A stretch of 32,192 nt of DNA, taken from NCBI GenBank assembly GCA_013696425.1, contig JACCYP010000063.1:1-32192 (forward strand). The letters run 5' to 3'. The notes beneath the pieces were generated by a model that ran no database searches, was not told the origin of the DNA, and saw only the letters and a list, made by a program, of their open reading frames with translations. The DNA comes from Thermoleophilaceae bacterium. GTDB lineage: Bacteria; Actinomycetota; Thermoleophilia; Solirubrobacterales; Thermoleophilaceae. The position numbers and the translations under genes are program-made. This document shows, in pieces, positions 1 through 22,854 of the stretch; within the stretch, counting starts at the first letter, position 1; each line of letters opens with the position of its first letter.

Positions 1-522
1 GGCCATGACCTCGGCCTGCTCGGCGCGGTGCTCCGCGGAGTAGGCGAAGCCGGTGGCCACCAGCGTCGATGCGAGCGAGGCGGGTACGCGGACGTGCATC
101 GGTGCGCCGTCGAGCGTCGCCCCGCCGCCGCGCTGCGCGGCGAACAGCTCACCGCTCGGCGGGTGAAAGATCACCCCGGCGAGCCCGCCGCCGGCGTCCT
201 CGACGGCCACGCTCACACACCACAGCGGGTGCCCGTAGAGGAAGTTGACGGTGCCGTCGAGCGGGTCGACCACCCATCGCCGCCCCGACGAGCCCTCGAG
301 GCCGGCGCCCTCCTCGCCCAGCAGCCCGTCGTCGGGGCGCTCGCCGCGCAGCAGCTCCTCGAGCAGGGCCTCGGCGTCGCGATCGGCGTCCGAGACCGGA
401 TCCGTCGAGGTGGACTTCGACTCCACGCCGGAGGCCGGCCCGCGGAAGCGCTCAAGCAGCAGTGCCCCCGCCTCGCGTGCGGCGCGCTCGGCCAGCTCCA
501 GGTCAGACGACGAAGCGGACAA
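1..522 (-). CDS. Inositol monophosphatase (IMPase/SuhB/HisN-type) family protein, partial; C-terminus runs off the left edge
   Basis: My own minus-strand translation, in the frame ending at nt 1, gives SSDLELAERAAREAGALLLERFRG...SDADRDAEALLEELL...GRRWVVDPLDGTVNFLYGHPLWCVSVAVED...LVATGFAYSAEHRAEQAEVMA. WxxDPxDGTxNF is the IMPase metal-binding signature. The ORF is absent from the track because it has no stop inside the window. TTG at 522 is the only canonical start I see, so the start is uncertain. Confidence 0.8.
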   Translation of the reverse strand, partial: MSASSSDLELAERAAREAGALLLERFRGPASGVESKSTSTDPVSDADRDAEALLEELLRGERPDDGLLGEEGAGLEGSSGRRWVVDPLDGTVNFLYGHPLWCVSVAVEDAGGGLAGVIFHPPSGELFAAQRGGGATLDGAPMHVRVPASLASTLVATGFAYSAEHRAEQAEVMA

Positions 523-604
523 CCAGGACCACCACGACGAGCACGGCGAGCACGTAGAGGAGGAACCTGAACGCCTCCCCCTCGGACCGAACGGGGTTGA
601 TCAA
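503..604 (-). CDS. Candidate 33-aa single-pass hydrophobic micro-protein (MINPVRSEGEAFRFLLYVLAVLVVVVLVVRFVV) downstream of oxidase subunit III
   Basis: This is the tail of track ORF 503..1156. The only canonical start downstream of the ctaE stop is TTG at 604. About 31 of 33 codons end in G/C, matching genuine genes here. It has a charged N-terminus followed by one strongly hydrophobic helix. No obvious Shine-Dalgarno sequence. It overlaps the proposed IMPase TTG start by 20 nt. Confidence 0.3.
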   Translation of the reverse strand: MINPVRSEGEAFRFLLYVLAVLVVVVLVVRFVV

Positions 605-631
605 ATCAACATCTTGTCGCGAAATTTGCGA
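596..631. promoter_or_regulatory. AT-rich island with two adjacent palindromes: GTTGAT-caa-ATCAAC (596-610) and TCGCGAAATTTGCGA (617-631, one mismatch)
   Basis: Read directly from the sequence. It is one of the few AT-rich patches in the window. It sits between the ctaE stop (727) and the IMPase-family start (522). A TTTCGCGA half-site recurs at 719-726. Confidence 0.3.
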
Positions 632-726
632 GAACCAAGCTCCGCAAGGAAGCAGGGTCGAAGACTTGGTAGGCCAAGTCGAGACCCGATGACGCCGCGG
701 AGCGACGGTTCGCAGCCATTTCGCGA

Positions 727-1347
727 CTAGATGAGGTAGATCGTGGTGTACACGACGATCCACATCACGTCGACGAAGTGCCAGTAGATCCCGGGGATCT
801 CGACACCGCGGTGCTCCTTCTCGGTGAAGTGTCCGCGGAACGCGCGCGTGGTGGCGAAGAACAGCAGCGTGAGGCCGATGAAGACGTGCGCGCCGTGCAG
901 GCCGGTGAGGCCATAGAAGATCGAAGTCTGCGCGCTCTCGGAGATCGCGAAGCCGATCGACACGTACTCGTTGATCTGGATCGCGAGGAACGCGGTGCCG
1001 AGCATCAGCGTGGCGAGCAGGCCGATGCGCATCGCGCGGCGGTTGCCGTGCTTCGCGCCCTCCAGCCCCCAGTGCATCGTGAAGCTCGAGGAGAGCAGGA
1101 TCGCGGTGTTCACGCCCGCGACCGCCACCGGCAGCTCGTTGCCGTCGCCCGGCCACGGCTCGTTGTTCACGACCCGGGTGAAGAAATAGGCCGTGAAGAA
1201 CGCTCCGAAGAGCATGACCTCGGAGATGATGAAAAGGAGCATCCCGAGCATCTGCGCGTCCACGCGCGAGCTCTGGTTGGCCTCCGGCGGGCCGTGATGG
1301 TCGTGCGAGCCGGCGGCGTGGCCGGCGCTGATCGAGGCGCTCTCCAT
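727..1347 (-). CDS. ctaE: Cytochrome c oxidase subunit III (short, about 5-TM form)
   Basis: A 206-aa ORF containing ...MLGMLLFIISEVMLFGAFF...FYGLTGLHGAHVFIGL...GIYWHFVDVMWIVVY, typical Cox3 motifs. Its start shares one base with the upstream stop (TGATG). Confidence 0.93.
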   Translation of the reverse strand: MESASISAGHAAGSHDHHGPPEANQSSRVDAQMLGMLLFIISEVMLFGAFFTAYFFTRVVNNEPWPGDGNELPVAVAGVNTAILLSSSFTMHWGLEGAKHGNRRAMRIGLLATLMLGTAFLAIQINEYVSIGFAISESAQTSIFYGLTGLHGAHVFIGLTLLFFATTRAFRGHFTEKEHRGVEIPGIYWHFVDVMWIVVYTTIYLI

Positions 1348-2171
1348 CAGGCGTTCGCGTCCTGTGGCATCTCGGCAGCGCTCGTTTCGACGTGCTCGAC
1401 CGGTGCCCCGCTCGATGCCCGCACCCGCTCGATGAGGTTGTTGCGCAGCCAGCCGGAGCGCTCGCCCGAGAGGGTCGAGATCACGACCTCATCGACCATG
1501 TAGAACTGGAGCGCGTTCATGATCGCCGTGTAGGGATCGGGGTGGACCACCTGCCCGACCACCTCGAGCCCCTCTCCCTCGAGCAGCTTGAGCGTGTCCG
1601 CGAGGCGCTGGAAGGCGGGGTCGCTCGAATCGTCGCCCTGGGGGCAGATGAGCGTGAACCGGTGCGGCTTGTCCGCGGCCTTCTTCTCGAGCAGCTCGAT
1701 CAGCGGCCGCCCGCTCACGGTCTGGTTGGCGACCACGAGCGTGTTCGTCACGTCCCTGCGGTCGCGGTCGAGGTCGACCACCACGTGCTGGACCGGCAGG
1801 CCGGTCTCGTGCTTGATCCGGTCGACGAGGCCGCGGCGCAGCCAGCCTGAGCGGGTCTCCGGGTGGGTCGAGACGATGATTTCGTCCGGCTTGAACATCT
1901 CGCACGCATCCATCGTGGCCGAGTAGGGGTCGGGGTCCATGACCTCGCCCGTCGCCCGGATGCCCTCGTCCGCGAGCTGGGCGATGGTGAGTTTGAGCCG
2001 GTTCTCGGCCGCCTCGCGCACCGTGCCGTCGTAGATCACGTAGCCGTGCTTGGGCTGGTTCTGCGGGGCGACCACGAACGCCTCGACCTCGCCCTCGGAC
2101 TTGCGGCTCTTCACGGCGTCGATCAGCTGCTGGCCGCCGACGGTCTCGTTGGCTACGACGAGGACCTTCAT
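1347..2171 (-). CDS. Soluble tandem-repeat protein with two degenerate USP-like / adenine-nucleotide alpha-hydrolase-like domains, embedded in the oxidase operon
   Basis: These are the C-terminal 274 aa of track ORF 1347..4124, starting at ATG 2171 (MKVLVVANETVGG...). The ATG overlaps the ctaD stop (ATGA). Its own TGA shares a base with the ctaE ATG. There is a clear internal duplication (aa 1-135 versus 141-262). No TM segments. Fold assignment is by pattern only. Confidence 0.75.
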   Translation of the reverse strand: MKVLVVANETVGGQQLIDAVKSRKSEGEVEAFVVAPQNQPKHGYVIYDGTVREAAENRLKLTIAQLADEGIRATGEVMDPDPYSATMDACEMFKPDEIIVSTHPETRSGWLRRGLVDRIKHETGLPVQHVVVDLDRDRRDVTNTLVVANQTVSGRPLIELLEKKAADKPHRFTLICPQGDDSSDPAFQRLADTLKLLEGEGLEVVGQVVHPDPYTAIMNALQFYMVDEVVISTLSGERSGWLRNNLIERVRASSGAPVEHVETSAAEMPQDANA

Positions 2172-4051
2172 TCGGCCGCCACCGGCTCGCGCTTCTCCTC
2201 GGTGGCCTTGAAGATTGCATGCTGTGCGCCCGGGACGCCGTACTCGTAGGGACCGCCGACGACCGTCGGGATCTCGTCGAAGTTGAAGATCGGCGGCGGT
2301 GAGGAAACCTGCCACTCGATCGTGTGGGCGCGCCACGGGTTGGCGGCGGCCTTCGGGCCGTGCCGCCACGAGGAGATCATGTTGTAGAGGAAGATGAAGA
2401 AGCTCATGCCGAAGATGAAGCTCGACACGCTGATGAGCGCGTTCAGCGTCGCGAACTCCTCGGCGTAGTCGGCCACGCGGCGCGGCATGCCGTCGACGCC
2501 CACGAGGTGCATGGGGCCGAAGGTGAGGTTGAAGAAGATGAACGACAGCCAGAAGTGGATGCGCCCGAGCGTCTCGTCGTACATCCGGCCCGTCATCTTC
2601 GGGAACCAGTGGTAGATGCCGGCGAAGATCGTGAACACCGACCCGCCGAACAGCACGTAGTGGATGTGGGCCACAACGAAGTAGGTGTCCGACACGTAGA
2701 TGTCCACGGGGATGACGGCGAGCACGATGCCGCTGATCCCGCCGAGGGTGAACATCGTGATGAAGCCGAGCGCGAACAGCATCGGCGTTGTCATGTGGAT
2801 GACGCCCTTCCAGAGCGTCGCGATCCAAGAGAAGATCTTGATGCCGGTCGGGACGGCGATCAGCATCGTCGTGATCATCATCGGGACGCGCAGCCAGCTG
2901 AACATGCCGGACACGAACATGTGGTGCGCCCAGACGGTGAATCCGAGCACCACGATCGCCATCAGTGAGAAGGCCATCATCCGGTAGCCGAAGACCGGTT
3001 TTCGGGCGTGCGTCGATATGACCTCGCTGATGATCCCGAAGCCCGGCAGCATCATGATGTAGACCGCCGGGTGGGAGTAGAACCAGAAGACGTGCTGGTA
3101 CATGAGCACGTCGCCGCCGGCCGCGGCGTTGAAGAAGTCCGTGCCGAGCGCGCGGTCGAAGAGGACGAAGAACTGCGAGCCGGCGATGAAGGGCGTCGCG
3201 ATCACGACGAGCAGCGAGGTCGTGAAGTTCGCCCACACGAGCAGCGGCATGCGCCAGAAGGTCATTCCGGGCGCGCGCATCGTGATGATCGTGACCAGGA
3301 AGTTGAGCGCGGTCGCGATCGAGGAGGCGCCCGCGAACTGGACGCCGATCGTGAAAAAGGTCTGCCCTAGCGGGGTCTCCGTCGAGAGTGGTGCGTAGGC
3401 GGTCCAGCCCGTCGCGAAGGAGCCGCCGGGGGCGAAGAAGCTCGCCACCATCATGATCCCGGCCGTCGGCAGCATCCAGAAGGACAGCGCGTTCAGGCGC
3501 GGGAAGGCCATGTCCGGCGCGCCGATCATGAGCGGCAGCACGTAGTTCGCGATCCCGGCGAACACCGGGATGATGAACAGGAAGATCATCAGCGAGGCGT
3601 GGACCGAGAACAGCCCGTTGAAGGTGTTCGGGTCGACGATCTGCGAGCCCGGCGCGGCGAGCTCCGCGCGCATGACCATCGCCATCAGCCCGCCGAGCAC
3701 GAAGAAGACGAACGTCGTGCAGATGTACTGGATGCCGATGACCTTGTGGTCGGTGTTGACCTTGAAGTAGTCCTTCCACGTGTGCGCGCCGTGGCTGGAG
3801 TGGTCCTCCTCGCGCGTCGGCTTGCCCGCCGCCCAGTAGAACCAGTAGTCGAAGCAGCCGATGCCGACCAGGAACGCGAGCGGAGTCGAGATGAGCGCGA
3901 CGGTGGTGATCGCGTCGCCGTCGAAGAGCGGGTCGTAGCCGTAGAGGGCGCGGACCCCGACGGTGAGCCCCAAGCCGAACAGGATGCCGAGCGGAATCGA
4001 CAGCGCGGCGCGGTACCAACCCGGTCCCTTGAACTTGGCGGCGAGCGTCAT
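2168..4051 (-). CDS. ctaD: Cytochrome c oxidase subunit I, A2-type (YSHPAV motif), with about 65 extra N-terminal residues forming two additional predicted TM helices
   Basis: A 627-aa ORF. It contains NTDHKVIGIQY, WFYSHPAVYIMMLPGFG (nt 3062-3079 encode YSHPAV, verified by hand), WAHHMF and VVAHIHYVLFGG. High GC3 persists through the N-terminal extension. Confidence 0.95.
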   Translation of the reverse strand: MTLAAKFKGPGWYRAALSIPLGILFGLGLTVGVRALYGYDPLFDGDAITTVALISTPLAFLVGIGCFDYWFYWAAGKPTREEDHSSHGAHTWKDYFKVNTDHKVIGIQYICTTFVFFVLGGLMAMVMRAELAAPGSQIVDPNTFNGLFSVHASLMIFLFIIPVFAGIANYVLPLMIGAPDMAFPRLNALSFWMLPTAGIMMVASFFAPGGSFATGWTAYAPLSTETPLGQTFFTIGVQFAGASSIATALNFLVTIITMRAPGMTFWRMPLLVWANFTTSLLVVIATPFIAGSQFFVLFDRALGTDFFNAAAGGDVLMYQHVFWFYSHPAVYIMMLPGFGIISEVISTHARKPVFGYRMMAFSLMAIVVLGFTVWAHHMFVSGMFSWLRVPMMITTMLIAVPTGIKIFSWIATLWKGVIHMTTPMLFALGFITMFTLGGISGIVLAVIPVDIYVSDTYFVVAHIHYVLFGGSVFTIFAGIYHWFPKMTGRMYDETLGRIHFWLSFIFFNLTFGPMHLVGVDGMPRRVADYAEEFATLNALISVSSFIFGMSFFIFLYNMISSWRHGPKAAANPWRAHTIEWQVSSPPPIFNFDEIPTVVGGPYEYGVPGAQHAIFKATEEKREPVAAE

Positions 4052-4141
4052 CGGCGGCGAATCCTAGACCCCGGGGGTCGTGGCAGACGGCGGCCGCGAG
4101 CTCGACCACAATTTCGCCGCCCATTGGTCGAATCCATCGGC

Positions 4142-4888
4142 CTAGCCTTCCTCGGCGGCCTTCGCGGCCGTCTTCGAGAGCCAGGCGTCGTACTCCTCGG
4201 GAGCCACGACCCTCACGCTCCCGCGCATGGTCGAATGGCCCAGCCCGCAGAGCTCGGCGCAGAGCACGTCGTAGCTGCCCTTTTCCGACGGTGTGGCACG
4301 CCAGTGCGTGGTGATGCCGGGCACGGCGTCGATCTTCAGGCGGAAGGCGGGGATCCAGAAGTCGTGGATCACATCATCCGTGTTGATGTTGAACTCGACC
4401 TGGCGGCCCGTGGGCACGACGAGGTCGTAGCTCTTGACCTTCTCCTTGCCGCCGGTGGGGTTCGGATATTCGTAGCGCCAGATGAATTGCTGGCCGCGCA
4501 CCTCCACCTGCAGCCGGTCGGGCTTCTTGGCCTCGATGTCGTCGAGCACGATCCAGCCGTAGACGGCGAGCACGGACACGATCACGAACGGGACCGCGAC
4601 CCACACGACCTCGAGCATCGTGTTGCCGTGGATCGGCTCGCCGTCGCCCATGTCGCCAGGCCTGGCCTTGAACGCGCGCACGCAGTAGATGACCACGACC
4701 ATCACGAGCACGAAGATCGGGACCGAGACGATCAGCAGGACGTCCCACAGGGTGTCGATGTCCTTGGCCTCCTGGACCGCGGCCGGGGGGAACCAGTCGA
4801 TCCACAAAGCGGCCACCACGCCGATCACCGAGGCGATCAGGCCGTAGATGGCCATCCGCAGGAGGGGGTGAGACACGCGAGAACGCAT
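4142..4888 (-). CDS. ctaC: Cytochrome c oxidase subunit II (CuA type, no fused cytochrome c domain)
   Basis: A 248-aa ORF with two N-terminal TM helices and the CuA motif DVIHDFWIP...CAELCGLGHSTM. No CxxCH. The start could also be the internal Met at residue 12. Confidence 0.93.
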   Translation of the reverse strand: MRSRVSHPLLRMAIYGLIASVIGVVAALWIDWFPPAAVQEAKDIDTLWDVLLIVSVPIFVLVMVVVIYCVRAFKARPGDMGDGEPIHGNTMLEVVWVAVPFVIVSVLAVYGWIVLDDIEAKKPDRLQVEVRGQQFIWRYEYPNPTGGKEKVKSYDLVVPTGRQVEFNINTDDVIHDFWIPAFRLKIDAVPGITTHWRATPSEKGSYDVLCAELCGLGHSTMRGSVRVVAPEEYDAWLSKTAAKAAEEG

Positions 4889-4963
4889 TGCCGGGCGGCA
4901 GCTTATCCCCCCTTCCGGCGAAGCGCTGCGCCAGGATTACGGTTGGCTCGGGCCGGGTGCGCG

Positions 4964-5326
4964 CTAAGCGGCCATCTCGGCACCCGCGTTGCCCCGGAAG
5001 CGGGACGGGGGAGTGCCGTGATGGCGGCGGAATGCCTTGGCGAACTGGGCCGGCTGCCTGTAGCCGACGCTCTGTGCGACGTCCCTCACGGGCGTCGTTT
5101 CCGACTGGAGCATCTCGGCCGCCTTGCGCATGCGCACACGCGCGAGGTGCGTGCGGAAGGAGGTCCCGCCGATCTCGTTGAAAACCCTTTGCAGCTGACG
5201 CCGGGAGGTCGCGACCCTTCGCGCGAGCCGGTCCAGGTCCAGATCCTGGGCGTACTCGTTCTCGATGATTGCAACCGCCTCGTCGAACAGAGCCCTGCGC
5301 CTGTGGATCGTCGTAGGTCGGTTCAT
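4964..5326 (-). CDS. AraC-family HTH transcriptional regulator, DNA-binding domain only (about 120 aa)
   Basis: Contains LDLDRLARRVATSRRQLQRVFNE...FRTHLARVRMRKAAEMLQ...VRDVAQSVGYRQPAQFAKAFRRHHGTPPSRFR, a double HTH of AraC type. I chose ATG 5326 rather than track start 5365 because the 13 upstream codons are AT-rich at the third position and look non-coding. Confidence 0.8.
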   Translation of the reverse strand: MNRPTTIHRRRALFDEAVAIIENEYAQDLDLDRLARRVATSRRQLQRVFNEIGGTSFRTHLARVRMRKAAEMLQSETTPVRDVAQSVGYRQPAQFAKAFRRHHGTPPSRFRGNAGAEMAA

Positions 5327-5410
5327 TAAAGGCTTATACGAGGCAACCCGGTAAACGGATGTCATGGGTTAGGGTTGAGCCGATCGGCACTAACTACCGA
5401 GAGGAGCAGG

Positions 5411-5827
5411 ATGCGGGTTAGCGAGGGCATGACGGCGACGGTCCTGAGTGTCGGACCGGGCCACTCCCTGCGCGACGCCGCCCGCCTGATGGCCGAGAAG
5501 CGCGTGGGCGCGGCGGTCGTGACCGATCCCGAGCAGCCCGGCCCGGGCATCATCACCGAGCGCGACGTGCTGAATTCGCTCGGCAAGGGCGAGGATCCCG
5601 ACCAGGAGCGGGTCGGCGATCACCTCTCGGGGACGCTCACGCTCGCATCGCCCGACTGGTCGCTCGAGCGCGCCGCCGAGGTGATGGTGCAGCGCGGCTT
5701 CCGCCACCTCGTGGTCGTGAACGGCGCCGACACGGTCGGCGTGCTCTCCATGCGCGACATCGTGCGCTGCTGGATCGGCGACGGCGCGACGTCGGACATG
5801 CCGCGGGAGCTGCCCGGGGCGGGTTGA
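5411..5827 (+). CDS. Stand-alone CBS-pair domain protein
   Basis: Contains MRVSEGMTATVLSVGPGHSLRDAARLMAEKRVGAAVVTD...GIITERDVL...AAEVMVQRGFRHLVVVNGADTVGVLSMRDIVRCW, two CBS motifs. GAGGAG lies 4 nt upstream of ATG 5411. Confidence 0.85.
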   Translation: MRVSEGMTATVLSVGPGHSLRDAARLMAEKRVGAAVVTDPEQPGPGIITERDVLNSLGKGEDPDQERVGDHLSGTLTLASPDWSLERAAEVMVQRGFRHLVVVNGADTVGVLSMRDIVRCWIGDGATSDMPRELPGAG

Positions 5828-5885
5828 GGCTCGCGCCCGCGCCGCGTCCCTGTCGCTGGCGCGTCCGCGAAGCGGCGAGCAGCGG

Positions 5886-6128
5886 CTAGTGGTGCTCCAG
5901 CGGCAAATCCGAGATGTCGTTGCGGACATCGCGGATCCACTTGGCCAGCACGTAGAGCAGGAGCAGGATTCCGAAGCCGCAGATGATCCAGCTCTTCACG
6001 ACGCCGAAGAGGATGACCGTGACGGCGAAGGCCACGAGGATCGGCTGGAAGCTCGGGTCGGGTAGGTGAACCGTTTCCGAGGGCGGGGCCAGCGGCCCGC
6101 CTGCGCCCTGTATCTCCTCGTCGGCCAT
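5886..6128 (-). CDS. 80-aa two-TM membrane protein, possible oxidase subunit IV-like small subunit
   Basis: These are the last 80 aa of track ORF 5886..6998: MADEEIQGAGGPLAPPSETVHLPDPSFQPILVAFAVTVILFGVVKSWIICGFGILLLLYVLAKWIRDVRNDISDLPLEHH. High GC3. The LPxPSxxPI motif followed by two TM helices is reminiscent of actinobacterial CtaF-type proteins (from recall, not searched). Confidence 0.6.
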   Translation of the reverse strand: MADEEIQGAGGPLAPPSETVHLPDPSFQPILVAFAVTVILFGVVKSWIICGFGILLLLYVLAKWIRDVRNDISDLPLEHH

Positions 6129-6232
6129 CAGTAGACGGATGCGACGAAGAAGGCCGCGCCGAACACCACGAGCGAGATCGCACCGGCGATGAGGCCGGTG
6201 CGCAGGTTGCGGATTGCGAGGCGTCGGTCCAC
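6128..6232 (-). CDS. 34-aa single-TM micro-protein (VDRRLAIRNLRTGLIAGAISLVVFGAAFFVASVY), translationally coupled to the 80-aa membrane protein
   Basis: This is track ORF 6128..6331 trimmed to GTG 6232, because the upstream part is Arg-rich and overlaps glk on the opposite strand. About 30 of 34 codons end in G/C. Its stop shares a base with the downstream ATG (TGATG). Confidence 0.45.
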   Translation of the reverse strand: MDRRLAIRNLRTGLIAGAISLVVFGAAFFVASVY

Positions 6233-6252
6233 GGAAGCGATCTTGTAGCAGA

Positions 6253-7254
6253 ATGCGCGGCGTGTCCGCCGACCAGCACCCGCTCGTGCTCGGCGTGGAC
6301 GTCGGCGGCACGAAGGTCGCGGTGGGCGCACTCGAGCGCGGTGCGATCACGGCCCGCACGGAGCAGCCGACCGTGCTCGACGGGCCCGACGCGTTGCTCG
6401 ACGGGATCGAGGCGGCGGTGGACGAGGTCGTGGCACGAACGGGAGCGCCCGCTGCGATCGGCGCCGGCATCCCTTCACAGATCGAGTTCGCCACCGGCAC
6501 CGTGCTCTCGAGCGTGAACATCCCGCTCGAGGGGGTGGCGCTGCGCGACGAGCTCTCCGCGCGGCTCGGGGTGCCCGCGGTGGTGGACAACGATGCCAAC
6601 TGCGCCGCGCTCGCCGAAGCCGACTCGCTGCCGGGATCGAACATCGTGATGCTCACGCTCGGCACGGGCGTGGGCGGGGGTGTGGTGATCGACGGGCGCA
6701 TCTTCCGCGGCTCATCGGGCCTCGGCGCCGAGCTCGGCCACGTGGTGATCGACGAGAACGGCCCGCCGTGCCCGGGCTCGTGCCCGAACCGCGGCTGCCT
6801 CGAGGCGTTCTGCTCCGGCACGGCGCTCGAGCGCGACGCGATGCAGGTGGCCGAGGACCGCCCCGACACCCACCTCGGGCGTGTGGTGGCCGAGCACGGC
6901 GAGGTGAAGGGCAAGCACGTGGTGCAGGCCGCCGAGGCCGGCGACCCGCACGCCCTCGACCTCTTCGAGCGGCTCGGGCGCCAGCTCGGCGTGGGCATAG
7001 CGAGCCTCGTGAACGCGTTCGAGCCCGAGCACGTGGTGATCGGCGGCGGCCTCGGGAGGGCGGCGGACTATTACCAAGCGCGGGCCGAGCGCGAGGCCTC
7101 GATCCGCGCGCTTCCCGCCTTGTGGGAGCGGACCCGGGTAAGCCGTGCCGCGAAGGGGGCGGACGCCGGCATGTTCGGCGCGGGGCTGCTCGCCTTGCAG
7201 GAGCTTGGCCGCAGCCGTGATACTTCCGCTCCGACCCGAGGAGAGGCCAGGTAA
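6253..7254 (+). CDS. glk: ROK-family sugar kinase, probable glucokinase
   Basis: Contains LVLGVDVGGTKVAVGAL (N-terminal ATP motif), VDNDANCAALAE, LTLGTGVGGGVVIDG and ELGHVVIDENGPPCPGSCPNRGCLEAFCSG (Cys-rich Zn region). ATG 6253 chosen within track ORF 6214..7254. Confidence 0.85.
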   Translation: MRGVSADQHPLVLGVDVGGTKVAVGALERGAITARTEQPTVLDGPDALLDGIEAAVDEVVARTGAPAAIGAGIPSQIEFATGTVLSSVNIPLEGVALRDELSARLGVPAVVDNDANCAALAEADSLPGSNIVMLTLGTGVGGGVVIDGRIFRGSSGLGAELGHVVIDENGPPCPGSCPNRGCLEAFCSGTALERDAMQVAEDRPDTHLGRVVAEHGEVKGKHVVQAAEAGDPHALDLFERLGRQLGVGIASLVNAFEPEHVVIGGGLGRAADYYQARAEREASIRALPALWERTRVSRAAKGADAGMFGAGLLALQELGRSRDTSAPTRGEAR

Positions 7255-7264
7255 CAGGAGAGAG

Positions 7265-9280
7265 ATGACAGCCACGACCACCGAGACGCGCACGCTGGAC
7301 GAGCTCTGCGTCAACACGATCCGCACGCTCTCGATGGACGCGGTCCAGAAGGCCAACTCGGGCCATCCGGGCACCGCGATGTCGCTGGCCCACGTCACCT
7401 ACACGCTCTACACGAAGGTGATGAACCACTCGCCTTCGAACCCGGACTGGCCCGACAGGGACCGCTTCGTGCTCTCCTGCGGCCACGCGTCGATGCTCCT
7501 CTACTCGACGCTCTTCATGGCCGGCTACGAGGGCGTGACCCTCGAGGACCTCGAGAACTTCCGCCAGCTCGACCGCCCGACCGCCGGGCACCCCGAGTAC
7601 GGCGACGCCGGGGGCATCGAGACGACGACCGGCCCGCTCGGCCAGGGCATCTCGAACGCCGTGGGCCTGGCGCTCGGTGAGCGCATGATGGCCGCCCGCT
7701 ACAACGAGGGCGAGCACGAGATCGTGAACCACTTCACCTACACGATCGCCAGCGACGGCGACCTGGAGGAGGGGATCTCGGGCGAGGCCAGCTCGCTCGC
7801 CGGCCACCTCGGCCTCGGGCGCCTGATCGCCTTCTACGACGACAACCACATCTCGATCGAGGGCGACACCGAGCTCGCGTTCTCCGAGGACGTGGCGGGG
7901 CGCTATGAGTCCTACGGCTGGCACGTCCAGAACCTCGGCGAGGACAACGGCATCGAGCGCGTGGAGGACGCGATCGCGAACGCCAAGCACGTGACCGACC
8001 GCCCCTCGCTGATCATCCTCCGCACCCACATCGCGGTGGGCGCGCCGAACGCGCAGGACACCAAGGAGGCGCACGGCGCCCCGCTCGGCGACGAGGAGGT
8101 CAAGCTCACCAAGGAGGCCTACGGCTGGCCCACCGAGCCGGCCTTCCTCGTGCCCGACGAGGCGTTCGAGCACTGGCGCGAGTGCATCCCGCGCGGCAAG
8201 GAGTCCGAGAAGCGCTGGGATCACAAGGCCTCGAAGTACGCGGAGTCCCATCCGGAGAAGTGGGCCGAGTTCGAGCGCCAGGTGGCGGGCACGCTCCCCG
8301 AGGGCTGGGACAGCGACACGCCGAAGTTCGAGGCCGGCGAGGACATGGCCACGCGCAAGGCGGGCCACAAGGTACTGCAGTGGGCGGCCTCGAAGGTGCC
8401 CGAGCTGGTGGGCGGCTCCGCCGACCTCGCGCCCTCGACCCTGACGGACATCGAGGACGCGGGCAGTGTCGAGAACGGCACGTTCGGCGGGCGCAACCTG
8501 CACTTCGGCATCCGCGAGCACGCCATGGGCGCGATCGTGAACGGGCTCAACCTGCACTACTTCCGCGCGTACGGGTCGACGTTCCTGATCTTCTCGGACT
8601 ACATGAAGGGCGCCATCCGCCTGTCGGCCCTCATGAAACTGCCGTCGATCACGGTGTTCACCCACGACTCGATCGGGCTCGGTGAGGACGGCCCGACGCA
8701 CCAGTCGGTGGAGCAGCTCGTGCACCTGCGCGCGACGCCGAACCTCCGCGTCGTGCGCCCGGCCGATGCGAACGAGACCGCGCTCGCGTGGCGCTACGCG
8801 ATCCGCCTCGACACCGGTCCGACGGCCCTCGCGCTCTCGCGCCAGGGCCTGCCGGTGATCGATCCGGCCAAGGTGCCAGACGACGCGATCGAGCGCGGCG
8901 CCTACGTCTTGGAGGATCCGGAGGGCGGCGAGCCCGACCTGATCCTCATGTCGAGTGGCTCCGAGGTCCCGATCTGCATGGCCGCGGCCGAGGCGCTCGA
9001 GACCGACGGCGCGAAGGTTCGTGTGGTGTCGGCGCCCTGCCTCGACACCTTCACCGAGCAGGACCAGGCCTACCGGGACTCGATCCTGCCGCCGTCGGTC
9101 AAGGCGCGCCTCGCTGTCGAGGCCGCGAGCCCGATGTCCTGGTACCGCTGGGTGGGTGACGGCGGCGACGTTCTCGGGATGACCACATTCGGAGCGTCGG
9201 GTCCGTACAAGGATGTCTACGAGAAGTTCGGCTTCACGCCGGAGAACGTCGTGAAGCGAGCCAAAGCACTAACGAGCTAG
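7265..9280 (+). CDS. tkt: Transketolase
   Basis: Contains [40 protein letters not shown]...[12 protein letters not shown]...[16 protein letters not shown]...[17 protein letters not shown] lies upstream of ATG 7265. Confidence 0.95.
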
Positions 9281-9289
9281 GAGCCGGTC

Positions 9290-12025
9290 ATGGAAGCAGC
9301 GACGAAGGTCAATCCCCGGCTGAAGGCCCTTGTCGAGGCCGGCACGAGCCCGTGGCTCGACCAGATCCGCCGCAGCCTGATCGAGGGCGGCGAGCTCCAG
9401 CGGCTCGTGGAGGAGGACTCCCTGCGCGGCGTGACCTCGAACCCGGCCATCTTCGAGAAGGCGATCCTCGGCTCCGACGACTACGACGAGGAGATCAACA
9501 AGCTCTCGGGCGAGGGGCTCGAGGCGAAGGACATCTACGAGAACATCGCGGTGAAGGACGTCCAGATGGCCTGCGACGTGCTGCGCCCCGTCCATGACGC
9601 CACCGATGGCTACGACGGCTACGTGTCGCTCGAGGTCGAGCCCTCGCTCGCGCACGACACCGAGGGCTCGCTCGGCTCGGCGCGCGATCTGTGGGGGCGA
9701 GTGGATCGCCCGAACGTGATGATCAAGATCCCCGGCACCGAGGAGGGCGTCCAGGCGATCGAGGACGCCATCGCCGACGGCATCAACGTGAACGTGACGC
9801 TGCTGTTCTCGGTCGAGTCCTACGAGACCATCGCCGAGGCCTACATCCGCGGCCTCGAGCGGCGCCACGAGAAGGGGGAGTCACTCGACATCCATTCCGT
9901 CGCGAGCTTCTTCGTCTCGCGAGTGGACTCCGAGGTCGACAAGCGACTCGCCGATCTCGGCCGCGAGGACCTCGAGGGGATCGCCGCCGTGGCCAACGCC
10001 CGGGCGGCCTACATGAGCTTCAAGGAGATGTTCTACGGAGAGCGTTTCGCCGACCTGCGCGCGGCCGGCGCGCCGGTGCAGCGGCCGCTGTGGGCTTCGA
10101 CGGGCGTGAAGGACCCGAAGTACCCGGAGACCAAGTACGTGGACGATCTGGTCGCACCGGACACGGTGAACACGATGCCGATGGCCACACTCACCGCGGC
10201 TGGTGAGAAGTCCGAGATCAGCGGCCCTACCGCCGACCAGGACCCGGCCGAGGACCTGAGGAAGCTCGCCGACGCCGGGATCGACATGGGCGATGTAACA
10301 AAGACCCTGCTGAACGACGGCATCGACAAGTTCATCGATCCCTTCAAGAAGCTCGTGGACGGTGTGGAGACGATTCGCAAGGCCGTGCTCGAAGGCCGCC
10401 CGCCGACCATCGAGGCCGGGATCCCCGACGACCTCAGGGCGAAGATCAAGGCCCGCGCCAAGCAGTCCGAGGACGAGGAGGTCGCGCGCCGTGTGTGGCG
10501 CAAGGACGAGACGCTCTGGGGCGGTCCCGGACCGGAGATCGGCAACCGCCTGGGCTGGCTCACCGTGGCCGACAACATGCTCGAGGCCGCTCCCGAGCTG
10601 CGCTCGTGGGCGGAGAGCGTGGCCGGCGAGGGCTACACCGACGCCGTGCTGTGCGGCATGGGCGGGTCGAGCCTGGCGCCGGAGGTGTTCCGCCTCTCCT
10701 ACGGCGAGATCCCGGGTGCGCTGAACCTGCACGTGCTCGACTCGACCGACTCGGGCGCGATCAAGGCGGTCGAGGACGCCATCGATCTCGACAAGACGCT
10801 GTTCATCGTCTCCACGAAGTCGGGCGGGACGATCGAGACGCTGTCGCTCTACAAGCACTTCCGCGCGAAGATCGACGACGGGCAGCACTTCGTGGCCGTG
10901 ACCGATCCCGGCAGCGGCCTGGAAAAGCTGGCCGAGGAGCAGGACTTCCGGCGCATCTTCCTCGCCGACCCGAACATCGGCGGGCGCTACTCGGCGCTCA
11001 CCCACTTCGGGATCGTGCCGGCCGCGCTCATGGGCGTGGATGTCGAGGCCGTACTCAACCGCGCGCTGGTGGCGGAGCAGAACTGCGCCCACTACGGCTC
11101 GACCGCGGACAACTCCGGCCTCTGGCTCGGCCTCGCGATGGGCGAGCTCGCGCGCGAGGGGCGCGACAAGGTCACGTTCTTCGTCTCGCAGCCGATCGAG
11201 GGCTTCTCGCTCTGGGTCGAGCAGCTGATCGCGGAGTCGACCGGCAAGGAGGGCAAGGGGATCCTGCCCGTGGCCGGCGAGCCGATCGGCGCGCCTGAGG
11301 CCTACGGCGACGACCGCGTGTTCGTCTACCTGCGAAACGGCGACGAGCCGGACGAGGACACCGACGCGAAGGTGAAGGCGCTCGCCGATGCGGGCCATCC
11401 GACCGTCACGCTCACCACGGAGGGCGGGCCGAGCGATCTCGGGCGGATCTTCTTCTTCGCCGAGTTCGCGGTGGCCGTGTCGGGCTGGGTGCTCGGCATC
11501 AACGCCTTCAACCAGCCGAACGTGCAGGAGGCCAAGGACGCCACCAACAAGGTGCTCGAGGGCTATGAGTCGAGTGGCTCACTGCCGGACGTGGCCGACG
11601 CCTCGGACGAGGACCTGCGCGCGCTGCTGGCGGAGGCCGGGCCGGGCCGCTACGTGGCGATAATGGGCTACCTCGAGCCCTCGGAGGAGTTCGACGCCGC
11701 GGTCACCGACCTGCGCGTCGCGATCCGCGACGCGAGGCGCGTGACCACCACCTACGGCTACGGGCCGCGCTTCCTGCACTCGACGGGCCAGCTGCACAAG
11801 GGCGGCCCGAAGACGGGCATCTTCCTCCAGCTGCTCCACGACGTGGACGTGGCCGAGGAGATCCCGGGCTCGCCGTTCGACTTCACGACGCTCAAGCACG
11901 CCCAGTCGATCGGGGACATAGAGACGCTCAAGGCGCACGAGCTGCCGGCGGCGCGTGTGCACCTCGAGGGCGATCCGGTGGAAGCGGTCCGCGCGCTCAC
12001 CGAGCGCGTGAAGGGTCTGCTGTAG
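9290..12025 (+). CDS. tal: Bifunctional transaldolase / glucose-6-phosphate isomerase fusion (911 aa)
   Basis: The N-terminal roughly 370 aa (SPWLDQIRR...GVTSNPAIFEKAI...VSLEV...MIKIPGT) are transaldolase. From about aa 395 (VWRKDETLWGG...LGWL...LCGMGGSSLAPEV...FIVSTKSGGTIET) the sequence is a PGI/SIS domain. Such fusions are a known annotated family. Confidence 0.9.
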   Translation: MEAATKVNPRLKALVEAGTSPWLDQIRRSLIEGGELQRLVEEDSLRGVTSNPAIFEKAILGSDDYDEEINKLSGEGLEAKDIYENIAVKDVQMACDVLRPVHDATDGYDGYVSLEVEPSLAHDTEGSLGSARDLWGRVDRPNVMIKIPGTEEGVQAIEDAIADGINVNVTLLFSVESYETIAEAYIRGLERRHEKGESLDIHSVASFFVSRVDSEVDKRLADLGREDLEGIAAVANARAAYMSFKEMFYGERFADLRAAGAPVQRPLWASTGVKDPKYPETKYVDDLVAPDTVNTMPMATLTAAGEKSEISGPTADQDPAEDLRKLADAGIDMGDVTKTLLNDGIDKFIDPFKKLVDGVETIRKAVLEGRPPTIEAGIPDDLRAKIKARAKQSEDEEVARRVWRKDETLWGGPGPEIGNRLGWLTVADNMLEAAPELRSWAESVAGEGYTDAVLCGMGGSSLAPEVFRLSYGEIPGALNLHVLDSTDSGAIKAVEDAIDLDKTLFIVSTKSGGTIETLSLYKHFRAKIDDGQHFVAVTDPGSGLEKLAEEQDFRRIFLADPNIGGRYSALTHFGIVPAALMGVDVEAVLNRALVAEQNCAHYGSTADNSGLWLGLAMGELAREGRDKVTFFVSQPIEGFSLWVEQLIAESTGKEGKGILPVAGEPIGAPEAYGDDRVFVYLRNGDEPDEDTDAKVKALADAGHPTVTLTTEGGPSDLGRIFFFAEFAVAVSGWVLGINAFNQPNVQEAKDATNKVLEGYESSGSLPDVADASDEDLRALLAEAGPGRYVAIMGYLEPSEEFDAAVTDLRVAIRDARRVTTTYGYGPRFLHSTGQLHKGGPKTGIFLQLLHDVDVAEEIPGSPFDFTTLKHAQSIGDIETLKAHELPAARVHLEGDPVEAVRALTERVKGLL

Positions 12026-12040
12026 GGGGCAATCCTGCTT

Positions 12041-12061
12041 TGACCACCGTATGGGTGGTCA
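12041..12061. terminator. Perfect 8-bp stem / 5-nt loop hairpin (TGACCACC gtatg GGTGGTCA), 16 nt after the tal-pgi stop
   Basis: Read directly from the sequence. No U-tract follows on either strand, so it would be an I-shaped terminator or stabiliser at best. Confidence 0.35.
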
Positions 12062-12245
12062 ATCCAGGACTGTGTGACTAGCGGCGAAGGCGCTCGCGGG
12101 GAGCACGAAAGCGGTGGCGATGGCGAGCGAAAAGGCGAGGCGCTTCATGCCTCAACCAAGGCAGCAGGGCCCCAAAGCTTGCGGCCCCGGCGCCGGAACG
12201 TCGATACTGCCCGCTCCGCAACCCCGCGCAAAGGAATCGCCTCTA

Positions 12246-13175
12246 ATGCAACTCGGCTTCATCGGCCTCGGAAAGATGGGCGGCAACATGGTCCATCGCA
12301 TCCACCGCGACTCGGATCACACGGTCGTCGCATTCGACTTCTCCGACGAGGCCGTGAAGGAGGCCGAGGGCACCGGCGCCACCGGCGCCAGCGGCCTCGA
12401 GGATCTCGTCGGCAAGCTCGAGGCGCCCCGGACCGTCTGGGTGATGGTGCCCGCCGGCGATCCCACGCAGGAGACCGTGGACAAGCTCGCCGAGCTGCTC
12501 GAGGAGGGCGACACGATCATCGACGGCGGCAACACGAAGTGGAAGGACGACGTGCGCCGCGCCGAGGAGCTGAAGCCAAAGGGGATCAACTACGTCGACG
12601 TCGGCACGAGCGGCGGCGTCTGGGGCCTCGAGGTGGGCTACTGCATGATGGTCGGCGGCCCCGACGAGGCGGTCGAGCGCGCCGCCCCGATCCTCGACAT
12701 CCTCGCTCCGCACGAGACCGAGGAGTGGGGCAAGGGCTGGGGCCACATGGGGCCGACCGGTTCCGGCCACTACGTGAAGATGGTCCACAACGGGATCGAG
12801 TACGGGATGATGCAGGCCTACGCCGAGGGCTTCGATCTCTTCCAGCAGTGCCAGTTCGACCTCGACAACGAGAAGATCGCCAAGCTGTGGATGCAGGGAT
12901 CGGTGATCCGCTCGTGGCTGTGCGGCCTCGCCGCGCGCGCCTTCGAGCAGGACGGCAACGACCTCGCTCCGCTCAAGGGCTTCGTGAACGATTCGGGTGA
13001 GGGCCGCTGGACGATCGAGGAAGCGATCGAGAACGACGTGCCGATGCCCGTGATCACCACCTCGCTGTTCGCGCGCTTCTACTCGCGCGGCAACGGCGAC
13101 TTCACGGCCCGGGTGCTGGCTGCGCTGCGCAACCAGTTCGGCGGCCACGCGGTCGAGAAGCAGGACGGCCCGTGA
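12246..13175 (+). CDS. gnd: 6-phosphogluconate dehydrogenase, short (about 300 aa) decarboxylating Gnd-like form
   Basis: Contains MQLGFIGLGKMGGNMVHRI (Rossmann GxGxxG), IIDGGN, GTSGGVWG and GSGHYVKMVHNGIEYGMMQAYAEG. ATG 12246 chosen. The upstream parts of track ORFs 12074 and 12114 look non-coding. Confidence 0.9.
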   Translation: MQLGFIGLGKMGGNMVHRIHRDSDHTVVAFDFSDEAVKEAEGTGATGASGLEDLVGKLEAPRTVWVMVPAGDPTQETVDKLAELLEEGDTIIDGGNTKWKDDVRRAEELKPKGINYVDVGTSGGVWGLEVGYCMMVGGPDEAVERAAPILDILAPHETEEWGKGWGHMGPTGSGHYVKMVHNGIEYGMMQAYAEGFDLFQQCQFDLDNEKIAKLWMQGSVIRSWLCGLAARAFEQDGNDLAPLKGFVNDSGEGRWTIEEAIENDVPMPVITTSLFARFYSRGNGDFTARVLAALRNQFGGHAVEKQDGP

Positions 13176-14725
13176 CCACAGTCGGCCAGCAGGACAAAAC
13201 CGAGCAGGAGGCCAAGAACCCACTGGTGGAGGGGCTCGAGCGGCTCCCGGTCCACCCGACGAACCTCGTGATCTTCGGGGCCACGGGCGACCTCTCCAAG
13301 CGAAAGCTCCTGCCGGCGCTCTACAACCTCGCCCACGAGGGCGCGCTGCCGGAGCGCTTCAACCTGATCGGCGTGTCGCGTTCGGACATGCCCCACGGGG
13401 ACTTCCGCGGCATGGCCAAGGAGGCGATCGAGAAGTTCTCGCGCCGCAAGCCCGATCCCAAGGTGCTCGAGGAGCTGCTGAACGAAGCCAAGTACATCCC
13501 CGGCAGCTTCGACGACGACTCCGTCTACACGACGCTCACAGACACCCTCGAGGAGTTCGACGAAGCCGCCGGGCACCCGTTCAACCGGATCTTCTACCTC
13601 TCGACGGCGCCGATGTTCTTCCCCGTGATCGTCGGGGCGCTCGGCAGGCACAAGCTCGAGGACACCAAGGACGACAACGAGGTCCGGGTCGTGATCGAGA
13701 AGCCCTTCGGCACGAACCTCGAGGAGGCGCAGGACCTGAACGAGCAGGTGCTCGACGTGCTCGACGAGTCGCAGGCCTACCGGATCGACCACTACCTCGG
13801 TAAGGAGACCGTCCAGAACATGCTGGCGTTCCGGTTCGCCAACGGCCTCTTCGAGCCGATCTGGAACCGTAACTTCATCGACAACGTGCAGATCACCGCC
13901 GCCGAGGACATCGGCATCGGCAGCCGCGCCGGCTACTACGACAGCGCGGGCGCGCTGCGCGACCTGGTCCAGAACCACATGCTCCAGCTGCTCACGCTGC
14001 TGTGCATGGAGCCGCCGGTCACCTTTTCCGCCGACGATGTTCGCGACGAGAAGGTGAAGGTGCTCCACGCAGTGATCAAGCCGACACCCGAGACGGTGGA
14101 CAGGTTCGCCGTGCCGGCTCAGTACGGCCCGGGGGTCGATGCCGGCGAGGACGTCGGCGGCTACCTGCAGGAGGACGACGTACCCGAGGACTCGACCACG
14201 GAGACGTTCGCCGCGCTGCGCCTCGAGGTGGACAACTGGCGCTGGGCCGGGGTGCCGATCTACCTGCGCACCGGCAAGCGGCTCGCGCGCAAGGTCACCG
14301 AGATCGCGGTGACCCTGAAGCCGGTGCCCCACCTGGCCTTCCAGGAGGACGGTTCGGTGGGCGTCAAGCCGAACCAGATCATCCTCACCATGCAGCCCAA
14401 CGAGGGCGTGACGATCACTCTCGGGGCGAAGATCCCCGGCAGCCGGATGCGGATCCGGCCGGTGAACATGGAGTTCCTCTACGGCACGGCTTTCCTCTCT
14501 GAGTCCCCGGAGGCCTACGAGCGCCTGATCATGGATGCGATGCGCGGCGACGCCACGCTTTTCACCCGCAACGACGAGGTCGAGGCGCAGTGGCACATCT
14601 GCGACCCGATCGTCAAGAACTGGGAGGCCCAGTCGGGACCGATCGCCCAGTACGAGTCCGGCTCCCAGGGGCCGGAAGAGGCCGACGAGTTGCTCGAGGA
14701 GGGCTCGCACTGGCGGGCGATCTAG
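13172..14725 (+). CDS. zwf: Glucose-6-phosphate 1-dehydrogenase
   Basis: Contains LVIFGATGDLSKRKLLPALYNL, VIEKPFG and RIDHYLGKETVQN. The GTG start overlaps the gnd stop (GTGA). Confidence 0.95.
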   Translation: MTTVGQQDKTEQEAKNPLVEGLERLPVHPTNLVIFGATGDLSKRKLLPALYNLAHEGALPERFNLIGVSRSDMPHGDFRGMAKEAIEKFSRRKPDPKVLEELLNEAKYIPGSFDDDSVYTTLTDTLEEFDEAAGHPFNRIFYLSTAPMFFPVIVGALGRHKLEDTKDDNEVRVVIEKPFGTNLEEAQDLNEQVLDVLDESQAYRIDHYLGKETVQNMLAFRFANGLFEPIWNRNFIDNVQITAAEDIGIGSRAGYYDSAGALRDLVQNHMLQLLTLLCMEPPVTFSADDVRDEKVKVLHAVIKPTPETVDRFAVPAQYGPGVDAGEDVGGYLQEDDVPEDSTTETFAALRLEVDNWRWAGVPIYLRTGKRLARKVTEIAVTLKPVPHLAFQEDGSVGVKPNQIILTMQPNEGVTITLGAKIPGSRMRIRPVNMEFLYGTAFLSESPEAYERLIMDAMRGDATLFTRNDEVEAQWHICDPIVKNWEAQSGPIAQYESGSQGPEEADELLEEGSHWRAI

Positions 14726-14745
14726 CGGGCGCGCCCGAGCGGGAG

Positions 14746-15792
14746 ATGGAGGGCGTCTGGAGCGCCCGGGACACCTCGCCCTCGGACATCGAGGCGGCCC
14801 TTCGGGAGTTGCTGCGAAAGCGCCACGAGGAGGAGGCGGCCTACGTGCCGGCCCGGGTGCTCAATCTCGTGGTGGTGGTCGACCGCGAGTGGAAGGGCGA
14901 GATCGAGAACCGACTGGACAATGTCGGGCGCTACCACCCCTCGCGAACGATCCTCTGCGCTGTCGAGGAAGGACGCACCTCGATCGACGCGAACGCCTCG
15001 ATCACCGACGACTCCGAACGCACCGGCATGACGCTCGGGTGGGAGCGCGTGGAGGTGGACGTCGGGCCACAGCACGTGAAGGCGCTCGACTCGATCGTCG
15101 ACCCTCTGGTGGTCACCGACCTCGCGACGGTGGTCTGGGCGCCCCACCGCCACTACGAAGCCGTCGATTCGCTCCTGAAGCTCTCGCAGGTGGTTCTGCT
15201 CGACTCGGTGGACGAGCCGGAGCCCGAGCTGGCCGTCAGGCGTGCCGCCGGCTTCGAGCGCCAGGCCTACGTGGTGGACCTCGCGTGGCTTCGCTCGACG
15301 CCATGGCGCGAGCGCGTGGCCGCGATCTTCGATCCGCCGCGTTTCCGCGAGGCGGTGAACCGGATCACCGCCGTCACCGTTCGCCACCACCCGAGCTCGG
15401 TGGTGGCCGCATCGCTGCTCGTGGGCTGGCTCGCCACCCGGCTCGGATGGGAGCCGGGCCGGCTCGCACGCCACGGTGACACGCTTCACGGCCGCGCGAA
15501 GGCGCGCAGGCAGGAGGTCGAGATCCATCTCGAGACCGTCTCGGAGATGTCCGTGCCGGGGCTCGAGGGAATCACGATCGGGATGGACTCGGGGGCGAGC
15601 TTCTCGTTTGACCGCGGCCCGGGCGGGCTCACGGCGACGCGCAGGGGGCGCGACGGCAAGGAGCAGCAGTTCACGGCCCTCGGGGCCTCGCGCGGGGAGT
15701 CGGGGATCCTGGGCGAGGGCATCCGCCAGGCGTTGCTCCGCGATCCCACCTACGGCCCAGCGCTCGAGGCCGCCGAAAAGATGCTCACCTGA
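14746..15792 (+). CDS. opcA: OpcA, glucose-6-phosphate dehydrogenase assembly/effector protein
   Basis: It sits immediately after zwf. The N-terminus TSPSDIEAALRELL...ARVLNLVVVVD and the overall size (348 aa from ATG 14746) fit OpcA. Confidence 0.8.
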   Translation: MEGVWSARDTSPSDIEAALRELLRKRHEEEAAYVPARVLNLVVVVDREWKGEIENRLDNVGRYHPSRTILCAVEEGRTSIDANASITDDSERTGMTLGWERVEVDVGPQHVKALDSIVDPLVVTDLATVVWAPHRHYEAVDSLLKLSQVVLLDSVDEPEPELAVRRAAGFERQAYVVDLAWLRSTPWRERVAAIFDPPRFREAVNRITAVTVRHHPSSVVAASLLVGWLATRLGWEPGRLARHGDTLHGRAKARRQEVEIHLETVSEMSVPGLEGITIGMDSGASFSFDRGPGGLTATRRGRDGKEQQFTALGASRGESGILGEGIRQALLRDPTYGPALEAAEKMLT

Positions 15793-22771: not shown

Positions 22772-22854
22772 CGAGCCGGAAAGGGTACCCGTCACGGCTA
22801 GACCCTGGGGGTCATGGCAGACGAAGGCTTCGGGCTCGACAACGGGTTCGGCGC

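Follow-up and report, generated by a model that had tools for sequence, protein, structure and literature searches.

A tandem TT0030/USP-like protein encoded between subunits I and III of a Thermoleophilia A2-type haem-copper oxidase: a candidate cytoplasmic accessory subunit

Introduction

Why should the operon of a respiratory oxidase carry, between the genes for its subunits I and III, the gene for a soluble protein? The question is raised by a stretch of 32,192 nucleotides from a Thermoleophilaceae bacterium (assembly GCA_013696425.1, contig JACCYP010000063.1), hereafter the window, in which an open reading frame (ORF), here called X, lies between ctaD (subunit I) and ctaE (subunit III) of a haem-copper oxidase operon. 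To our knowledge all subunits of bacterial A-type oxidases are membrane proteins, and we know of enzyme-level regulation by a soluble cytoplasmic domain from mitochondria and not from bacteria. An earlier note on this DNA, made from the letters alone, had described X as a soluble, internally duplicated protein resembling universal stress proteins (USPs). Here we show that a protein of known fold has become a conserved part of the core operon of a respiratory oxidase. On balance we favour the reading that X serves the A2-type haem-copper oxidase of Thermoleophilia as an accessory subunit, structural or regulatory, that is dedicated to this enzyme and resides in the cytoplasm.

X is a conserved coding gene of the oxidase operon

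The start codon of X overlaps the stop codon of ctaD as ATGA and its stop codon shares a base with the start codon of ctaE as TGATG, as the earlier note had read this 274-codon ORF (coordinates in Table 1). The 4-nucleotide ctaD/X overlap was present in 68 of 87 loci; at the X/ctaE junction 69 of the 87 had a 1-nucleotide overlap and 8 a 4-nucleotide overlap. Recurring as they do in most of the 87 loci, these overlaps are more than chance, and the description of X as an integral, coupled operon member was borne out well beyond the window. From the sequence, X is predicted to be read from one mRNA with subunits I and III and to be coupled to both through overlapping codons. Its start and stop codons overlap those of ctaD and ctaE, and matched production would therefore be favoured. 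Being operon-encoded and co-translated with the core subunits is a mark of an oxidase subunit, and X has overlaps on both sides. The GC content at third codon positions was 0.95, like that of the adjoining genes, and the ratio of nonsynonymous to synonymous substitution rates was 0.09-0.19 in close, unsaturated orthologue pairs; X is a real coding gene under strong purifying selection. A scan of positions 300-5500 of the window for promoters and terminators yielded nothing beyond shuffle expectation.

The X family comprised more than 7,900 proteins in a word-indexed search and 2,427 representatives at 50% identity in an exhaustive search, and conserved X peptide patterns were found in 566 species genomes. 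Synteny was examined in the best 80 of these 566 genomes, labelled Thermoleophilaceae, Solirubrobacterales, Conexibacter or unclassified Actinomycetota metagenome-assembled genomes (MAGs), with the flanking genes placed by tblastn. In every genome of the best 80 with flanks, ctaD lay directly upstream of X and ctaE directly downstream, with ctaC and usually an AraC gene further upstream. The ctaD-X-ctaE order was also found in Gaiellaceae loci (L085-L087; X 46-49% identical), in the clusters L091 (51% identity) and L092 (48%), and in 80 independent soil metagenome contigs wherever flanks were present. The position of X is invariant across at least two orders, down to 46% identity. As a check, the earlier note had proposed asking whether homologues keep company with oxidase genes. 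The orthologues did so in every locus examined, so that none of the outcomes named there as refuting its reading was seen, and three distant single-domain relatives proved to be scattered.

One locus (L093, positions 935-1366) carries a single-domain X of 143 amino acids between ctaD and ctaE, followed by the gene for a transmembrane USP-like protein (TM-USP; see below). It was the only case among about 170 loci, and its X, when used as query, retrieved 80 metagenome loci that all had the tandem form. The single-domain X is rare and no evolutionary conclusion is drawn from it.

An apparent COX1-X-COX3 fusion of 1130 amino acids in a Gaiellaceae MAG (L083, positions 4594-7986), which would have spoken strongly for fusion, was rejected. 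The ORF is out of frame where COX1 ends and again within domain 2 of X, which points to assembly frameshifts, and the same operon is present as separate genes in L085-L087. The frameshifts run through open alternative frames of the high-GC DNA, and four metagenome proteins of the representative library (P0175, P0212, P0240 and P0268) are chimeras of the same kind.

Fold, family and motifs of X

The two halves of X gave a local alignment score of 222, compared to 28 +/- 4.6 for 300 shuffles (approximately 42 standard deviations). Domain 2 is about 10 residues short in the PQNxPxHGY loop, where the self-alignment has a 10-residue gap. No transmembrane (TM) segment was found in X, the highest 19-residue Kyte-Doolittle mean being 1.19, and X is expected to stay cytoplasmic because it has neither a signal peptide nor a TM helix. 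Both the internal duplication, with the motifs that had been quoted for it, and the soluble character of the protein were thus recovered as first described.

The AlphaFold2 (AF2) model of X (predicted local distance difference test, pLDDT, 79.9; predicted template modelling score, pTM, 0.55) contains two beta-alpha-beta domains with five strands each (E-H-E-H-E-H-E-H-E twice), and has the five parallel strands alternating with helices that define a USP fold. When the model was compared with the PDB by Foldseek the top matches were tandem USPs and TT0030 (E ~1e-7, probability 1.00), the tandem USPs being UspE/YdaA, Rv2623, TTHA0350 and AF 3LOQ (E 1e-7 to 1e-6). The USP-like alpha/beta fold suggested in the earlier note therefore passed the structure-model and Foldseek comparison that it had proposed. 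The Foldseek match to TT0030 (2IEL) had a template modelling score (TM-score) of 0.75 at 26-28% identity, and superposition on TT0030 gave TM-scores of 0.75 for X and 0.76 for TM-USP, with a root-mean-square deviation (rmsd) of 3.4-3.6 Å and 26-31% identity. Sequence searches led to the same protein: TT0030 was the sole relative of X among PDB chains in a single-sequence search (E 0.0019), and a profile of 37 orthologues matched 2iel_A over residues 3-135, the whole domain, at E 3.6e-7. In the X-TT0030 match the X loop STLPPGLSRWLR aligns with STHPETRSGWLR.

The X of the window matched no Pfam or NCBIfam family, and did not match Usp (PF00582) even at E<=10. Weak PF00582 matches were obtained for 27 of the 37 orthologues at E<=0.01 (best 3.4e-8), and the TM-USP protein P0246 scored 20.3 bits, below the cut-off of 24. 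An assignment of X to DotU/TssL was discarded as spurious, since it consisted of short local matches over the conserved loop, with 19.8 bits for a 28-residue stretch in Pfam against a cut-off of 27 and 16.3 in NCBIfam against 89.95. Taken together, the sequence matches and the predicted structure identify X as two TT0030-like domains in tandem, belonging to a divergent USP superfamily branch for which Pfam has no model.

Across the 37 orthologues (60-79% identity) 70 alignment columns were invariant. Strands 1 to 4 are followed by the invariant motifs ANET, PQNxPxHGY, DPDP and STHPxTRSGW, respectively. These residues, among them the polar N, E, T, H, R and S, gather at the C-terminal ends of the strands, which is where proteins of the USP-like fold class bind ligands. 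Two conserved motif loops (residues 40-48 and 107-109) had the lowest model confidence (pLDDT <50). The canonical ATP loop G-x2-G-x9-G(S/T) was not found in X, in 120 close homologues, in 117 TM-USP proteins or in 120 TT0030-family proteins. In its place X has ST(H/L)PxxRSGWLR, a replacement that had been spotted in the window and now extends to the homologues: the motif S-T-x-P-x2-R-S-x-W-L is present twice in 118 of the 120 close homologues.

A micro-ORF and membrane-tethered USP-like proteins

Directly after ctaE, loci of the window type carry a micro-ORF of 33-36 amino acids in which xNP(L/V)RSExEAFRFL is followed by one hydrophobic helix. A micro-ORF bearing this motif was found in 71 of 90 loci; it is annotated as a 36-amino-acid gene in L001 and L002 and is uncalled in L091. 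At the same position, Gaiellaceae-type operons encode the TM-USP, a protein of about 215-220 amino acids that starts with the micro-ORF motif (MRNPVRTEAEAF..., VRNPLRSEAEAFRFLLL...). The order within this protein is motif helix, second helix, linker and one TT0030-like domain. A hidden Markov model built from 68 micro-peptides matched TM-USP residues 3-27 (E 2.5e-5 to 1e-3 at a nominal database size of one million), and in L093 and L092 the N-terminus of the TM-USP is almost the same as the micro-ORF peptide. The AF2 model of TM-USP P0246 consists of a helical hairpin (residues 4-31 and 34-54), a disordered linker and a USP-like domain, and its best PDB match was 2IEL (E 3e-9, TM-score 0.76).

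Judged by these peptide comparisons, the micro-ORF and the N-terminal anchor of the TM-USP of Gaiellaceae are homologous. Both the micro-ORF and its link to the TM-USP are new relative to the earlier note. The operon of the window lineage has two USP-like domains and a bare anchor; Gaiellaceae and most sufficiently long soil contigs have three domains, one of them membrane-tethered. In L093 a single-domain X and an anchored domain are found in one operon.

Relation to known systems

For either domain of X, as well as for that of the TM-USP, TT0030 of Thermus thermophilus is the best relative in both sequence and structure, and the ST-x-P...S-x-W-L-R loop is common to TT0030 and X. It is an uncharacterised structural-genomics protein with a single domain of 138 amino acids, whereas X is a tandem, and no paper on TT0030/2IEL was found. 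The oxidase operon provides a first functional context for this orphan branch of USPs, for which there is a crystal structure but neither a Pfam model nor a known role. The tandem USPs UspE/YdaA of E. coli and Salmonella, Rv2623 of M. tuberculosis and TTHA0350 of T. thermophilus resemble X in having two USP-fold domains in about 270-310 amino acids. X differs from them in lacking G-x2-G-x9-G(S/T) and a PF00582 match, in its poor whole-chain superposition and in its genomic role; we know of no oxidase operon that includes UspE, Rv2623 or TTHA0350.

USP domains are commonly ligand-dependent regulators on membrane machines. Examples are TeaD, which goes with the TeaABC TRAP transporter, and KdpD, a kinase whose USP domain binds c-di-AMP. 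TeaD and the KdpD USP domain were among the Foldseek matches of the X and TM-USP models, at 8-19% identity. They have the same fold as X and are cytoplasmic modules encoded with, or fused to, the membrane machine that they modulate, and they serve as a model for X. Their partners are a transporter and a kinase rather than a respiratory oxidase, and TeaD uses the canonical ATP site, of which X has none. Mitochondrial cytochrome c oxidase has matrix-side, nuclear-encoded subunits with allosteric ATP/ADP sites, and we know of no bacterial counterpart of these. The concept of an extrinsic domain on the N-side with possible coupling to energy status would be the same for X, but the folds and origins are unrelated and nucleotide binding by X is hypothetical.

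Our search of the literature on USPs and oxidase operons and on Thermoleophilia oxidases found no USP-like gene within a haem-copper oxidase operon. Thermoleophilia-specific proteins of unknown function have been published by accession only (PMC6544083), and X could not be mapped to them. The closest parallel in gene order is the coxBA-PA0107-coxC operon of P. aeruginosa, in which an assembly-factor gene lies between the genes for subunits I and III; PA0107 is a non-subunit gene that, like X, has this place in an A-type operon, and it is possibly translationally coupled (PMC5436846). Given that operon, the statement in the earlier note that cta operons encode only membrane subunits was too strong (PMC5436846). 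PA0107 has no sequence or fold relation to X. Factors of the PA0107 type are membrane-anchored and act outside the cytoplasm.

Possible roles of X

X is probably a partner of the oxidase because it is encoded with overlapping codons between subunits I and III across the class. The points in favour of an accessory role are the synteny, the conserved overlaps, the purifying selection, the fold, the membrane anchor and the precedent of TeaD and KdpD, together with the second oxidase cluster of the window (20889-25415), which is of A1 type and has no USP-like gene. Subunit I turns its C-terminus, and a five-helix subunit III its N-terminus, towards the cytoplasm, where the entrances for proton uptake also lie. 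The USP-like domains of X would dock on the cytoplasmic face of the oxidase, where the micro-protein may help to retain them. The crevice of X with the ANET, PQNxPxHGY, DPDP and STHPxTRSGWLR motifs might bind a small ligand or a partner loop in a non-canonical mode, and X could thereby modulate the activity or stability of the oxidase.

More tentatively, X, the micro-TM protein and the anchored domain of Gaiellaceae could possibly form a hitherto unknown cytoplasmic, ligand-sensing extrinsic module of the oxidase that gates proton uptake or turnover by energy or stress status. If true, the module would be the bacterial equivalent of the allosteric control by nucleotides that is known from mitochondrial cytochrome c oxidase only. 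Thermoleophilia are very abundant soil actinobacteria, and the two or three USP-like domains kept in their core oxidase operon are a concrete candidate for regulation of a bacterial oxidase by a soluble cytoplasmic domain, to which a conserved micro-protein of 33-36 amino acids, sometimes missed by gene callers, is now added. Nothing spoke specifically for the hibernation-type role that had also been suggested for X.

Several observations weigh against X as an accessory subunit. Its docking on the oxidase is something that we infer, and its ligand is hypothetical because the canonical nucleotide loop is absent. The whole chain of X superposes on tandem USPs with TM-scores of only 0.29-0.38 (about 0.33) and an rmsd of 18-20 Å, and the inter-domain geometry is uncertain in the model (pTM 0.55). 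No genuine fusion of X to subunit I or III was found among the loci examined. The distant single-domain relatives that were checked, namely the Thermus TT0030 orthologue, L089 and L090, including the only crystallised one, showed no oxidase linkage.

In addition, operon membership alone fits an assembly factor too. Under this explanation X would be a transient cytoplasmic assembly or biogenesis factor that, for example, retains new subunit I or cofactors for it until subunit III is added, and it would not be part of the mature enzyme. Strict operon linkage fits equally well with such a role, and the slot between subunits I and III does hold an assembly-factor gene in coxBA-PA0107-coxC of P. 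aeruginosa (PMC5436846). However, X matched no assembly-factor family (Cox11/CtaG, Caa3_CtaG, Surf1 or Sco) in Pfam or NCBIfam, nor any other family of these databases, and the permanently anchored third domain in Gaiellaceae suggests a stable membrane-proximal module more than a chaperone that acts transiently. Cox11/CtaG, Surf1 and Sco are moreover generally known to work at the outer face of the membrane; X, by contrast, is predicted to be cytoplasmic. We regard an assembly factor as rather unlikely. We find it more improbable still that X, as a protein of general stress or energy status, shares transcription with the oxidase for co-regulation only and has no physical or specific functional link to it. 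USP-family proteins are generally stress-related, and relatives of X are found in unrelated contexts: the TT0030 orthologue in the Thermus genome adjoins LptF/G and ADH genes and not oxidase genes, another distant TT0030-like relative has Usp, sigma-factor and Asp23 genes around it, and P0132, a divergent tandem relative with 40% identity, lies beside DUF1775 on a 3.2-kb contig with no oxidase gene. Co-regulation alone would nevertheless leave unexplained why the position of X and the codon overlaps on both sides are kept in at least two orders, even where identity drops to 46%, why a gene of the same operon tethers a USP-like domain to the membrane, and why the other oxidase cluster of the genome is without such a gene.

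An enzymatic role, in which X would be an adenine-nucleotide alpha-hydrolase or HUP-class enzyme making or modifying a cofactor or nucleotide for the oxidase, appears highly improbable. Phosphopantetheine adenylyltransferases and photolyase N-domains share the fold class and appear lower in the Foldseek lists, and the clustering of conserved polar residues at the strand ends would agree with this role. Yet the catalytic signatures of such enzymes, HxGH and SGGxDS, are absent from X, and in structure X comes closest to non-enzymatic USPs and TT0030.

Oxidase genes and other features of the window

The coordinates of X, its junctions and domains, and the neighbouring genes are listed in Table 1.

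Table 1. Positions of X, the oxidase genes and associated features in the window.
Feature	Position	Strand	Remarks
X, soluble tandem TT0030/USP-like protein	1347..2171 (including stop)	-	274 codons + stop
ATGA junction, start codon of X over stop codon of ctaD	2168..2171	-	ATG 2171-2169, TGA 2170-2168
TGATG junction, stop codon of X and start codon of ctaE with base 1347 in common	1345..1349	-	TGA 1349-1347, ATG 1347-1345
Domain 1 of X, residues 1-137	1761..2171	-	motifs ANET, PQNxPxHGY, DPDP, STHPxTRSGWLR (invariant alignment columns); matches 2IEL 4-135
Domain 2 of X, residues 138-263	1383..1760	-	duplicate of domain 1; self-alignment and model secondary structure
Micro-ORF, 33 amino acids	503..604	-	downstream of ctaE; TTG start, one TM helix, MINPVRSEGEAFRFLLYVLAVLVVVVLVVRFVV, motif NPVRSEGEAFRFL
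ctaE, subunit III, short form, 206 amino acids	727..1347	-	Pfam COX3, E 7e-41, profile positions 77-255 of 258
ctaD, subunit I, 627 amino acids, A2 type (YSHPAVY)	2168..4051	-	Pfam COX1, E 3e-156, domain residues 105-546
ctaC, subunit II, 248 amino acids	4142..4888	-	Pfam COX2 and COX2_TM; no fused cytochrome c domain
AraC-family regulator	4964..5365	-	Pfam HTH_18; immediately upstream of ctaC; synteny kept in most related loci (tblastn)
Second oxidase cluster	20889-25415	-	ctaC2, ctaD2, haem A synthase-like ORF, ctaB; no subunit III gene, no USP-like gene
ctaC2	24543-25415	-	
ctaD2, A1 type	22855-24546	-	GHPEVY
Haem A synthase-like ORF	~21773-22800	-	
ctaB/UbiA	20889-21776	-	

The earlier assignment of the oxidase to the A2 type agrees with YSHPAVY in ctaD, which we take to be the A2-type signature of the haem-copper oxidase classification; GHPEVY in ctaD2 marks the A1 type. 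Ahead of the COX1 domain, residues 1-104 of ctaD form an N-terminal extension of about 100 amino acids with two extra hydrophobic helices in the hydropathy profile. The ctaD call in L091 is 827 amino acids long and has a DUF4389 region in front. Many relatives have an added C-terminal Cytochrom_C domain on ctaC (322-363 amino acids; L002, L085 and L091). Since ctaC is found with and without this domain, aa3-like and caa3-like versions of the operon both occur in the clade.

A gene for a CBS-pair protein (5375-5827, + strand) is divergent from the AraC-family regulator, and the pair recurs in L001, L002 and L091. These neighbours may provide an energy-sensing input to the operon, which is possible because CBS pairs often bind adenosine ligands. 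At 5886-6131 (- strand) lies a gene for an 81-amino-acid two-helix protein that matches Cyt_c_ox_IV weakly (E 9e-4) and has DLPLEHH as its last residues; it is preceded by a small hydrophobic ORF at about 6131-6235 (- strand). Equivalent pairs (34-36 and 75-80 amino acids) are present in L001 and L002, and in L091 the pair stands beside the COX1-UbiA genes of the other oxidase. L091 also has a separate Caa3_CtaG gene near the operon.

Positions 7145-16475 (+ strand) contain a complete pentose-phosphate block, with genes for transketolase, a 911-amino-acid transaldolase-PGI (TAL-PGI) fusion, 6-phosphogluconate dehydrogenase, G6PD, OpcA and 6-phosphogluconolactonase. In L001 and L002, too, the genes for transketolase and TAL-PGI stand in synteny with the oxidase operon. 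At 26947-28704 (+ strand) a 585-amino-acid protein combines an SCP2 sterol-transfer domain with a domain resembling the small chain of ribonucleotide reductase (ferritin-like), an unusual pairing.

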